DNA of 38,942 nt from Bacillota bacterium (lineage in GTDB: Bacteria; Bacillota; Limnochordia; DTU087): NCBI GenBank assembly GCA_012518905.1, contig JAAYRF010000047.1, positions 1-38,942 on the forward strand. Direction: 5' to 3'. The notes under the pieces are model-generated. The model was given only the letters and a program-made list of their open reading frames with translations, was not told the origin of the DNA and did no database searches. The position numbers and the translations under genes are program-made. Shown here piece after piece: positions 7,666 through 12,017 of the stretch (positions are counted from its first letter, which is position 1; the number at the start of each line of letters is the position of its first letter).

Positions 7666-8706
<1,041 letters not shown>

Positions 8707-8772: not shown

Positions 8773-9843
8773 TTAAAAGCTCCCCCACACTCGGTTAGGC
8801 TCCTCAGCTCCCGCATCACTCCCCTCCAGGCTAGCCATCATCAGTCGGGCAGCACCTTCATCGGTGATGCAAACATGCTGGTAGCGATTGGACATGACAG
8901 CTAGGGCCGCTGCTGCCTTGCTGCGGCCTCCCCCTACAGCTACAACCTTACCGATATTGGGCAAATCTTCCATTCGTAAGCCAACACTGCTTGTGGTGTA
9001 GACAATGTCTCCGCTGTGATTGAAGTAATAACCGAAAGCCTCTCCCACGGCTTGCTTTTCCCGCAGAACACTGAGATCTTTTTCAGCCAATCCCCTGCGC
9101 TTAGCCATTTCCTCCGCTGTCCCGATACCGTGCAGGACCATATCCGTCTCTTTGATCAAATCTAGCATTTCCTTAATCTTTGGATCCCCACACAGGGAGG
9201 CAATTACATCTTCTCCCACATCGTCGGGAACATGCAACAGCCGATAGGTGCCGCCAAGTCGCTCTGCTATATTAGCCGCCACAGTATTGGCCTGTTTCTC
9301 TACCTCTTCACCGAGGCCTCCCCGGGCCGGCACCACCATCACTTCCCGTTTCTCACCGGAGGCAGGGAAACTCCTGGCCACTTCGGCTAAGGTAGTTCCA
9401 CCGGTTACAGCTAGAACGTCTCCATCCTTCAAAACAGCCTTCAGATACTTGGCCGTGGCTTTGGCCATCTCTTTCTTAACAGTCTCGTCTTCATCAGAAT
9501 CCCCGGGTACTATGATAACTTGCTGCAAACCCAAAAGACGGGCCAGGCGTCGCTCTAGATCCGACAAACCTCTGAGCTCTCGGACGTATTCCTTCAAATC
9601 ACCCAAAAGGCGCTCCCCGGCAGGAGTGACCTCCATTCCGGCAGGATTAGATATAAGCAACCCCTGCTCTCTTAAGAGCTCGATTTCATTGCGTACGGTA
9701 CGTTCCGGTAAGCGCAAACGGGCTGCCAAAGCCCGTCGGCCTACGGGCTGAACGAAATAGATGTTTCGTAGAATAATGTATCGCTTCTCCACAAGCTCGG
9801 CGATTTCCGGCGCAATTTTCCTTATGATCTCCAAGTTCACCAT
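8773..9843 (-). CDS. cggR: Central glycolytic genes regulator (SorC/DeoR family)
   Basis: QPVGRRALA..ERTVRNEIELLREQGL winged HTH, VTGGTT and PARGGLGE sugar-binding domain; directly upstream of gap; start placed at ATG 9843. Confidence 0.95.
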   Translation of the reverse strand: MVNLEIIRKIAPEIAELVEKRYIILRNIYFVQPVGRRALAARLRLPERTVRNEIELLREQGLLISNPAGMEVTPAGERLLGDLKEYVRELRGLSDLERRLARLLGLQQVIIVPGDSDEDETVKKEMAKATAKYLKAVLKDGDVLAVTGGTTLAEVARSFPASGEKREVMVVPARGGLGEEVEKQANTVAANIAERLGGTYRLLHVPDDVGEDVIASLCGDPKIKEMLDLIKETDMVLHGIGTAEEMAKRRGLAEKDLSVLREKQAVGEAFGYYFNHSGDIVYTTSSVGLRMEDLPNIGKVVAVGGGRSKAAAALAVMSNRYQHVCITDEGAARLMMASLEGSDAGAEEPNRVWGSF

Positions 9844-9968
9844 ATAGAAGCGAGCAAGGCTCGCAGCCCCCCTGTGTTCCATATTACTGCCATGGCAGTG
9901 TTAGTGTTGGCCAATAGAGCGACATAATGTATTCAAGACTACCGGCTAGGTGATGGAGCCGCCTTGGG

Positions 9969-10004
9969 GTCTGATATTGTCCCGCCCCAACACATTCTGT
10001 CCCA
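9969..10004 (-). promoter_or_regulatory. CggR operator
   Basis: TGGGAC-AGAATG-TGTT-GGGG-CGGGAC-AATATC-AGAC matches the B. subtilis direct-repeat operator CGGGAC-N6-TGTC-N4-CGGGAC-N6-TGTC with exact spacing. Confidence 0.88.
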
Positions 10005-10042
10005 CTGGTGGCAAAAAAAGAGAGACCGTGTACGATTAATAT

Positions 10043-10069
10043 ATTCGAGTCAGCAAACCAAAGTCCTCC
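10043..10069 (-). promoter_or_regulatory. SigH-like promoter of the cggR-gap operon
   Basis: GGAGGACTT-11 nt-CTCGAAT versus consensus RNAGGAWWW-N11/12-RNNGAAT; about 40 nt upstream of the operator. Confidence 0.55.
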
Positions 10070-10101
10070 AGATCCTAGACAACTTCTTCAGAAGTTTACA
10101 G

Positions 10102-11010
10102 TTAGTCTTCCCCCCGCAGATCGTCCGCGATCCTGTCTATTTTCCGCAAACGATGGTTTACCCCTGACTTGCTCAACGGTGGATCTAGAAGCGTGCCTAG
10201 TTCCTTAAGGCTTGCATAGGGGTACTGCAGCCGAAATAGGGCAATTTCCTGGAGCTCTGGGGCTAGTGAATCCATGCCTTTCGTTTCAGCAATCAGTCTG
10301 ATATTCTCCACTTGCCGCAAAGAGGCGTCAAGGGTCTTATCCATATTGGCAGTTTCACAGTTGACTAGACGATTGGCCTGGTTCCGCATCTCCTTCAACA
10401 CACGGATACTCTCGAGTTTGAGCAGAGCAGTATGGGCCCCCAGCAAACTGAGAAGTTGACCAATCAACCCCGCGTCTTTTAAATAGACGGTGACATGTCG
10501 CTTACGCTGCACCACGCCCGGAGATATGCCAAATGTCTCCATACAGCTCTGCACCAGGGCTGCTTGTTGAAATGTATCAGTCACTATCTCCAAATGGTAA
10601 TTCTTATTGGGGTTGGTAGCAGAGCCTCTGCCTAGATATATACCTCTGAGAAAAGCCCTCCGGCAGCAGGCTCTTCCCCATCGGCCCCGCAAATACCGGC
10701 GCTGAACACCCTCAAGACTCTTGGTAATCCTCACCAGGCCCGGCTGTTGGGGTATTCTCACCACATAGATATGGTGCTTATTAAATTGGGCCCGTCGGCG
10801 GACTTTGATCTCTAGATACGGCTGATACAACTGCTTAAAGAGAGTATAAACCTTCCGGGCCGCGGCGGCCTGGCCGGCTACCACCTCATATCCATCAGCT
10901 ACTATGAGCCCGTCAACATAGGCCAAACCTGCCAATTCAGCCAGTTGGCAGCACCGGCGTTCTGGCATGATGCGGGCTAATTCATCTCTAATGCCTCGGG
11001 AAAATCCCAT
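10102..11010 (-). CDS. whiA: DNA-binding protein WhiA (LAGLIDADG-like domain plus HTH)
   Basis: MGFS..IRDELARI..RRCCQLAEL, CCRRAFLRG, NRLVNCETAN, SKSGVNHRLRK; family-typical start at ATG 11010. Confidence 0.96.
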   Translation of the reverse strand: MGFSRGIRDELARIMPERRCCQLAELAGLAYVDGLIVADGYEVVAGQAAAARKVYTLFKQLYQPYLEIKVRRRAQFNKHHIYVVRIPQQPGLVRITKSLEGVQRRYLRGRWGRACCRRAFLRGIYLGRGSATNPNKNYHLEIVTDTFQQAALVQSCMETFGISPGVVQRKRHVTVYLKDAGLIGQLLSLLGAHTALLKLESIRVLKEMRNQANRLVNCETANMDKTLDASLRQVENIRLIAETKGMDSLAPELQEIALFRLQYPYASLKELGTLLDPPLSKSGVNHRLRKIDRIADDLRGED

Positions 11011-11090
11011 TTCCGCGTGGGAGATGCCCCACTTCCCCCTCTCTTTCTCATACAACCTGGGGCTCAGGCATTCCTATGCTTACCTCGGCC

Positions 11091-11118
11091 CTTCGCCACT
11101 TAAAACCTCAATTCCTCT
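11091..11118 (-). promoter_or_regulatory. SigH-like promoter of whiA
   Basis: AGAGGAATT-12 nt-GGCGAAG. Confidence 0.6.
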
Positions 11119-11215
11119 ATTGCACCGGGTATCACACACCTTGCTTCCATGGTACGCTCGATTTGACTTGTAGTGTTGATAATCCCTTAATTGAGCTGTC
11201 GCAGCACCAAACGGT

Positions 11216-11245
11216 GTATCACTTTGGCTCGGGAAACTCATATTA
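11216..11245 (+). promoter_or_regulatory. SigG-like promoter upstream of the PHP gene
   Basis: GTATC-18 nt-CATATTA versus consensus GHATR-N18-CATXHTA. Confidence 0.4.
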
Positions 11246-11285
11246 TTTGGGGGATGGAGCACTACTTAAGAAAGAGGTAACTACC

Positions 11286-12017
11286 CTGAGAATCTTCGCC
11301 GATTATCACACTCATACAGTGCACAGCCATGGTCGAGGTACAGTGGAAGACAATGTGAAAGCCGCTATTTCCGCAAATCTGAGGGCCATTGCCATAACCG
11401 ACCATGGACCGGCTAACCTTTTTGGTGTCGGTGTAAAGAATTTGGATGTCTTCCAAGTCATCAGGCAAGAGATAATCGCCTGTCAACGCAAGTTCCCCCA
11501 CATCCAGATCCTATTGGGTGTGGAAGCCAATATCATAGACCTGGACGGAACCTTGGACGTACCTTTAGAAAGGCTCCACGAGTTCGACATAATCTTAGCC
11601 GGCCTCCACCTACTTGTGCATACTAACAGCTTGCTTTCGGGCATGGTCATGGCCGGCAATCTCATTGGCCGCTACTGCCCAGTGGCAAGGAACCGTCTGC
11701 GTAAACTCAATACGCAAGCAGTCATTGCAGCCTTGACCCAGTATCCCATAGATATTCTTACCCATCCAGGCCTTAATGTTGACATTGATACCCGGGCAGT
11801 TGCCGAAGTGGCTGCCCAAACAGGTACCTATATGGAAATTAGCACAAGGCACCACAACATCCAGCCATCCTACCTAGAAACTGCTTTCGTGGCCGGAGCT
11901 CGTTTCGTCATAAGTAGTGATGCCCACTCTCCCGGTGAGGTAGGAGAGGGAGAGCTCGGTACGCAGCTAGCTAAGGCTGCAGCCATACCTCCTTGGGCCA
12001 TACATAACCTGAGCTAG
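11286..12017 (+). CDS. PHP-domain phosphoesterase (YcdX/HisPPase-like)
   Basis: DYHTHT, ITDHGP, GVEANI, THP and SSDAH metal ligands; probable CTG start at 11286 behind SD AAGAGGT. Confidence 0.88.
   Translation: MRIFADYHTHTVHSHGRGTVEDNVKAAISANLRAIAITDHGPANLFGVGVKNLDVFQVIRQEIIACQRKFPHIQILLGVEANIIDLDGTLDVPLERLHEFDIILAGLHLLVHTNSLLSGMVMAGNLIGRYCPVARNRLRKLNTQAVIAALTQYPIDILTHPGLNVDIDTRAVAEVAAQTGTYMEISTRHHNIQPSYLETAFVAGARFVISSDAHSPGEVGEGELGTQLAKAAAIPPWAIHNLS

Follow-up and report, generated by a model that had tools for sequence, protein, structure and literature searches.

The closest described relatives of the arrangement discussed here come from bacteriophage T4. In gene 38 of this phage, the Shine-Dalgarno (SD) sequence lies 22 nt from the start codon and a hairpin reduces this spacing to 5 nt, while in gene 25 another hairpin turns 27 nt into 11 nt; mutations in the stems reduce translation, dimethyl sulfate probing backs the fold and the layout is confined to close T-even phages, according to the sections of PMC3014915 that deal with these genes. 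The T4 cases trace to Gold 1988, Nivinskas et al. 1999 and Malys and Nivinskas 2009 (as reported in the relevant parts of PMC3014915 and PMC7297116). Such regions are termed noncontiguous or split in the passages of PMC7297116 that name them, where its own variant is called "rare"; "accommodated" is also in use. Our subject is a pair of leaders that seem to be built along the same lines, those of whiA and cggR in a stretch of 38,942 nt from an uncultured Bacillota bacterium of a biogas reactor (contig JAAYRF010000047.1 of assembly GCA_012518905.1), which we refer to throughout as the window.

A first-pass annotation of the window had proposed that a hairpin bridges a distant SD and the start codon at both genes, and had named T4 genes 38 and 25 as the precedent, which is a genuine one on the account of those genes in PMC3014915. 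Having compared the two leaders with their counterparts in related genomes, we think with moderate confidence that whiA and cggR use a split translation initiation region of the gene 38/25 type. As in T4 (the phage values being those in the sections cited), the SD lies far from the AUG (22-27 nt in T4), the predicted hairpin would sit wholly between them and the spacing would be cut (5-11 nt in T4); as in T4, too, the layout is conserved in one clade and absent from more distant relatives, without an alternative SD. The differences are equally plain. The T4 genes belong to a coliphage, whereas whiA and cggR are chromosomal, are found in a family of uncultured Bacillota and encode two adjacent but unrelated regulators. 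Their stems, predicted from sequence, pair a G-run with a C-run, which could instead mask the SD. In the literature that we searched, split SD-AUG regions are called rare, with genes 38 and 25 of T4 as the documented cases. Our literature search, whose coverage stopped short of subscription journals, turned up SD-hairpin-AUG cases only for T4 and no chromosomal bacterial one. What would be new, if our comparisons are read correctly, is the chromosomal site, the uncultured Bacillota family and the use of the layout by two adjacent, unrelated regulators.

A looser likeness is to Escherichia coli thrS and rpmE, where initiation also tolerates a stable hairpin within the ribosome-binding region, and this hairpin sets how the elements flanking it are arranged (PMC3936740, PMC7297116). 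In those two genes, as far as the same sources' sections on them go, the hairpin follows an enhancer that is single-stranded or AU-rich, precedes an SD at normal spacing and is a protein operator. In whiA and cggR, the predicted hairpin parts the SD from the start codon.

Layout of the two leaders

Read on the - strand, the whiA leader is GAGGGGG-AA-[GTGGGG CATC TCCCAC]-GCGGAA-ATG and the cggR leader is AGGGGGG-CT-[GCGAGC CTT GCTCGC]-TTCTAT-ATG, exactly as first annotated. In both, a 6-bp hairpin starts 2 nt past a G-rich SD run and stops 6 nt ahead of the ATG, so the SD run lies 24 nt from the ATG in whiA and 23 nt from it in cggR. The geometry is the same at both genes and the stem sequences are distinct, in keeping with the original suggestion of a shared structure carried by differing stems. 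The parts of the two leaders, and the genes they serve, are as follows.

11035..11041, - strand: whiA distal SD run GAGGGGG, within the purine-rich stretch GAGAAAGAGAGGGGGAA
11017..11032, - strand: whiA spacer hairpin GTGGGG-CATC-TCCCAC, 6 bp with a closing G-U pair; arms 11032-11027 and 11022-11017
11008..11016, - strand: whiA right spacer GCGGAA (6 nt) and ATG (11010-11008); N-terminus MGFSR kept in the family
10102..11010, - strand: whiA coding sequence, 302 aa and stop; Pfam WhiA_N, LAGLIDADG_WhiA and HTH_WhiA
9867..9873, - strand: cggR distal SD run AGGGGGG; the other 12 family leaders read GGAGGG
9850..9864, - strand: cggR spacer hairpin GCGAGC-CTT-GCTCGC, 6 bp with a triloop; arms 9864-9859 and 9855-9850
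9841..9849, - strand: cggR right spacer TTCTAT (6 nt) and ATG (9843-9841); N-terminus M(V/D)NL kept
8773..9843, - strand: cggR coding sequence, 356 aa and stop; Pfam CggR_N and Sugar-bind; followed by gap, pgk and tpi

A spacing of 23-24 nt is too long for this host. Its genome (2.41 Mb in 299 contigs) has a clear preference: strong SD 5-mers peak 7-8 nt from candidate starts (362 and 304 counts, respectively, against a background of ~50-130), and there is no second peak among candidate starts at 20-26 nt. Of the neighboring genes, pgk has GGGGGG at 6 nt and tpi has GGAGG at 10 nt. On this point, the first-pass annotation, which had held the SD of both leaders to be too far away for linear use, was right.

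The presumed ribosomal partner of these runs can be read in one of the 12 genomes of the host's family, G004, in which alone this end of the 16S rRNA is assembled (the 16S 3' end was not found in the window's own assembly). It finishes in GGATCACCTCCTTTCT and includes the canonical anti-SD, CACCUCCUUUCU. At the distal SD, 7 of the 11 family whiA leaders read AAAGGGGGG, which pairs with the G004 tail through one G-U.

The mechanism we have in mind is a simple one. The 30S subunit would pair its canonical anti-SD with the strong, distal, G-rich SD, 19-26 nt before the ATG; a hairpin, short, rich in G-C and wholly inside the spacer, would loop out 11-19 nt; and the unpaired remainder, some 5-10 nt, would bring the ATG to a normal SD distance, so that the ATG could reach the P site. 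We infer that the hairpin forms on ribosome-bound mRNA and that the ribosome uses the distal run as its SD, with the net effect of permitting, and probably limiting, translation of both regulators. If this is true, then ribosomes in a Gram-positive lineage that depends on the SD can also cope with a hairpin in the spacer, and gene callers that assume linear spacing, along with models of ribosome-binding-site strength, will mis-score such starts. It would also mean that the layout can arise and become fixed at two unrelated neighboring regulators in one family, whose 12 species, with their differing stems and loops, would then be a natural comparative series.

Conservation in the family and the position of the start codons

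The host's family in GTDB comprises 12 species in 6 genera, all of them uncultured Bacillota represented by metagenome-assembled genomes. Removal of duplicates left 11 different leaders for whiA and 13 for cggR; a scan of metagenome contigs added only duplicates and one near-duplicate cggR leader, L032. Every family leader (11/11 whiA, 13/13 cggR) carries a distal, G-rich, SD-like 5-mer 16-28 nt from the same ATG, and in none of them (0/11 and 0/13) does an SD-like 5-mer lie 3-13 nt from that conserved ATG. Outside the family, an SD-like 5-mer stands at 3-13 nt in 33 of 54 whiA leaders and 13 of 17 cggR leaders, and most of those that fail this strict test show weaker purine runs close to the start.

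The spacer keeps its plan as well. A G-arm, a loop and a C-arm are present in all the family leaders (for whiA in 11/11, with loops of 4-7 nt), and a covariance model of the whiA element, R1, matches 11/11 family whiA loci (six of them its seeds) and 0/19 loci from outside. Pairwise identity in the 28 nt upstream of the SD is 30% for whiA and 40% for cggR, against 71-79% across the SD and 5' arm. Of the stem's conservation in close relatives, on which the original proposal had staked a good deal, this much holds: the arrangement is kept in all of them. Judged by these alignments, conservation at both genes in every family genome lifts the layout above chance.

A long spacer is only of interest if the start codons are correctly placed. 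The identity of the genes is clear enough. The whiA product has a complete domain set, with PF10298, PF14527 and PF02650 (N-terminal, central LAGLIDADG-like and C-terminal helix-turn-helix, respectively) all over the Pfam cut-off. It finds a match in 40 of 41 related genomes, mostly aligned from residue 1-3, and its N-terminus, MGFSR, is common to the family, with M-x-F-S common across the class. The cggR product matches PF21715 and PF04198 in Pfam, and the next open reading frame (ORF) encodes glyceraldehyde-3-phosphate dehydrogenase (GAPDH), as expected for CggR, the SorC-family regulator of the gap operon. The names pgk and tpi are given on ORF size and position only.

Could translation begin further upstream, with part of the spacer coding? 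The distance from SD to ATG ranges across the family from 19 to 28 nt and differs by non-multiples of 3; a non-canonical in-frame start near the SD, such as ATC in whiA, is rejected for this reason. In-frame stops fall within the whiA spacer of L006, L010 and L011 (TAA at -15) and within the cggR spacer of L006, L010 and L031, 3-6 nt before the ATG (at -3 or -6), and in 7 of the 13 cggR leaders, reading upstream from the ATG, a stop is reached before any in-frame start. Two upstream starts, ATG 9882 for cggR and TTG 11055 for whiA, had been singled out at the outset as the ones that would undo the proposal. Neither has an SD or is conserved, and in several relatives they are absent, out of frame or followed by stops. 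We also considered, and rejected, translational coupling through a short upstream ORF, begun either by GTG 11032 in whiA or by a TTG in the cggR loop (ending at TGA 9839-9837); neither start codon is kept in orthologs. The comparisons indicate that the conserved ATGs are the true starts, that they lack a canonical SD and that the spacer is non-coding.

Folding of the spacer and the pairings that compete with it

Folded on their own, the spacers are predicted to form a hairpin in 11/11 whiA and 13/13 cggR leaders; set against 500 shuffles, it is significantly more stable (p<0.05) in 9 of the 11 and 9 of the 13, respectively. The cggR spacer of the window has a minimum free energy of -9.5 kcal/mol, with 0 of 500 shuffles as stable. 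The unpaired remainder comes to 7-12 nt in cggR (median 9) and 1-10 nt in whiA, to be set beside the genome's SD optimum of 7-8 nt; the low whiA values arise because the fold adds weak outer pairs or because our definition of the SD left an extra G in the spacer. In these models, then, the cggR remainder is close to the genome's normal optimum.

Compensatory changes in the stems, which the first-pass annotation had suggested looking for in orthologs, are few. Across seven cggR stem sequences from genera g1-g5, 88% of cells are paired, against 36-52% with the partner slid, and two pairs have changed on both sides (A-U in the window versus G-C elsewhere, and A-U in L004), a number matched by 17 of 500 shuffles. 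In the whiA stem, as aligned by fitting to the covariance model, one pair shows a double change, the flanking pairs vary among G-U, G-C, A-U and U-A, and 96.8% of cells are paired; four of the six pairs, the GGGG/CCCC core, are invariant.

Inverted repeats next to gene starts have other uses, and both of these are perfect or near-perfect. They might be DNA operators for a dimeric transcription factor, or the cggR hairpin might be a leader terminator or attenuator (with its TTCTATAT tail, it is flagged as terminator-like by a simple scan). We regard either as highly improbable. Loops range in length from 3 to 8 nt and a substitution in one half-site goes with a complementary one in the other, a pattern that fits RNA pairing rather than a fixed protein footprint. 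G-U pairs are also present, and recognizable repeats resembling the CggR operator lie elsewhere, at 10004-9979. T-rich tails are missing at whiA and in most cggR orthologs (L003 has gtgctgc and L004 aatctat at this point).

Several observations weigh against bridging, and they deserve to be gathered in one place. The 12 family genomes are related, so that counts of conserved leaders overstate their independence. In three whiA leaders, a GTG close by offers an alternative start (at -24 in L004, -21 in L005 and -3 in L009) and has an SD-like 5-mer 3-13 nt away. Covariation across the stems is modest as far as the alignments reveal it, and for whiA, with its invariant core, it does not rise above shuffles (62-119 of 500). 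In L008 and the six leaders of genus g6, the cggR stem shrinks to just 3-4 G-C pairs (-3.1 to -4.3 kcal/mol), and that of L008 is no more stable than shuffled sequence (p = 0.52). Local folds in the window are unexceptional, with z scores of -1.28 (cggR) and -0.28 (whiA), and MAFFT followed by RNAalifold gave no consensus hairpin for the family leaders, an absence we put down to their differing loop lengths. Lastly, the minimum-energy fold of 49 nt around the whiA leader pairs the SD run (GGGGGA) with UCUCCC of the C-arm, and folds in a 65-nt context give a probability of only 0.05-0.72 that the SD is unpaired.

These last folds bring us to a different way of looking at the leaders. RNA thermometers and the expression platforms of riboswitches are leader hairpins that sequester the SD. 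Our two leaders are like them in having an anti-SD-like, C-rich segment near a G-rich SD, with which it pairs in predicted folds: the order in both is G-run, G-run, loop, C-run, and in context folds, the C-arm often pairs with the SD run rather than with the proximal G-run (the SD run pairs with the C-run in those of L001, L003, L006 and L009). The leader could be mainly inhibitory, or a switch, in which the C-rich arm pairs either with the proximal G-run, leaving the SD free, or with the SD run, masking it, so as to keep both regulators low or to answer a signal (temperature, a protein or a small RNA), with the long spacing a by-product. That the whiA ATG lies in the self-complementary AUGGGAUUUUCCCG speaks for this too. 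We think it unlikely to be the main explanation, though with a real chance of being so. In genera g1-g5, the cggR hairpin falls precisely between the SD and the ATG and includes neither. Of the pairings available, the one that is most local and best conserved leaves the SD free. The leaders match no aptamer, ligand-binding family or Rfam family (E <= 1), and the SD is at a working distance only if the hairpin forms. Masking alone also leaves unexplained why none of the 24 leaders has a normally spaced SD, and why the unpaired remainder should match normal spacing. The two readings are compatible, and masking can coexist with the bridging that we favor.

Two further pairings involve the start codons themselves. 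The AUGGGAUUUUCCCG stretch of whiA (10997-11010, - strand) places the AUG in a small hairpin in most family context folds, where its probability of being unpaired is 0.00-0.93; such a hairpin may limit whiA translation further if these models are right. In the genus-g6 cggR leaders (L006, L009-L011, L031 and L032), a long-range helix is predicted between GGCCGGGU, just past the SD, and ACUUGGCU, in codons 4-7, enclosing the ATG.

The host genome and the setting of the two genes

The first-pass annotation had also proposed scanning the genome for the layout. We required an SD 5-mer at 16-32 nt from a candidate start with no SD-like 4-mer at 4-12 nt, and between SD and start a perfect stem, 5 bp or longer, that begins no more than 4 nt after the one and ends 3-9 nt before the other. 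Of 20,297 candidate starts, 38 have this geometry; with shuffled spacers the figure is 27.3 +/- 4.9. Restricted to first or second candidate starts, the scan gives 14 against 7.0 +/- 2.3, and with stems of at least 6 bp, 6 against 1.9 +/- 1.4. In the host genome alone, the geometry is hardly above chance.

We retrieved 12 other top matches from the scan and discounted seven on inspection. Those at MreB, PurC, an endonuclease/exonuclease/phosphatase (EEP-family) nuclease and a methyltransferase each have another start within a few codons, served by a canonical SD; the starts proposed for a GFO/IDH/MocA protein and a TetR protein truncate their Pfam domains; and the N-terminal 57-85 residues of a ParA-like protein are not kept in 10 of 11 family orthologs. 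Two matches, L101 and L105, are ORFs without a Pfam match that we did not judge to be genes, and the remaining three of the 12 (C50+429, C131+5554 and C215-5977) fall outside the seven discounted. Searched against its own genome, the R1 model finds only whiA (E = 1.4e-4), the next matches having E > 5. Because R1 finds nothing else and the other matches inspected mostly fail, we conclude that the layout is not a habit of the host genome. A genome-wide class of bridged sites, for which there is no second SD-distance peak either, was rejected.

With shuffled spacers yielding the geometry about seven times per genome among first or second starts, and so many of the inspected matches discounted, one might ask whether the whiA-cggR likeness is itself chance, or neutral and without function, given that G/C-rich leaders often fold. 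We put little credence in this: the layout is kept at both genes across 12 species and six genera, while the sequence before the SD stands at 30-40% identity.

How the genes are arranged gives some idea of when the leaders arose. Among the loci compared (11011-12017 of the window and L002-L030), whiA is divergent from (PHP-)rapZ-yvcK in 11/11 that belong to the family; of the 19 from other families, 16 have yvcK immediately upstream of whiA on the same strand. One locus from a different family of the same order, L020, already has the divergent whiA order, with an ordinary SD. It is from this comparison of gene order and SD across families that we take the bridged sites to have arisen at the level of the family, at two genes each of which leads its transcription unit. 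Within the family, whiA and cggR are each the first gene of their own unit (in the window, both are on the - strand, with 258 nt between the whiA stop and the cggR ATG), and the layout is, on the evidence of the alignments, specific to the family.

It is tempting to go further and imagine a lineage-specific, bistable translational module, made of an SD G-run, a decoy G-run and an anti-SD-like C-run, that arose when whiA left the rapZ-yvcK operon and that puts WhiA, with its part in cell division and chromosome biology, and CggR, with its part in glycolysis, under joint control by one signal, be it temperature, the level of free 30S subunits or an RNA-binding factor. We mention the idea as a speculation that is decidedly unlikely to be right.

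The leading position of both genes bears on one more explanation. In the STAB-SD of Bacillus thuringiensis cryIIIA, an SD-like run is a stabilizing ribosome-binding site. The distal G-run might likewise stabilize the message, or form a 5' protective element with the hairpin, and the ATG might start without help from an SD. In its favor, the SD-like run lies far from the start and near a stable hairpin, in the first genes of transcription units, and the right spacer of cggR is A/U-rich. Even so, we consider this very unlikely: no family leader offers the ATG another SD in a genome that is strongly SD-dependent, the SD-ATG distance is held to 19-28 nt without drift and contigs from RNA libraries reach well upstream, to 10023 and 11220 (strandless). 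These metatranscriptome contigs, from four runs and at least 99% identical to the window, cover 9799-10023 (others reaching up to 9979) and 10997-11220. They place both leaders in RNA libraries; they carry no strand, start or level, and so say nothing about transcript ends.

A few smaller features of the neighborhood should be recorded. Upstream of cggR, on the - strand, are two GGGAC repeats, TGGGAC at 10004-9999 and CGGGAC at 9984-9979. Similar repeats occur upstream of cggR in other families, and they resemble the CggR operator of Bacillus subtilis. The cggR leader also contains a perfect 14-nt palindrome, ACTGCCATGGCAGT, at 9886-9899, which is flagged as terminator-like on the + strand and is not visibly kept in L002, L005 or L008. 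On the other side of whiA, orthologs of the PHP protein align only from about residue 65 of ORF 11076, and the true PHP start, going by those alignments, is probably near 11270. Downstream of cggR, the longest gap ORF starts with ATGAGGAGGATG (8677-8688, - strand) and its GAPDH domain begins at residue 9; the true gap start is probably a downstream ATG, with the AGGAGG in ATGAGGAGGATG as its SD.

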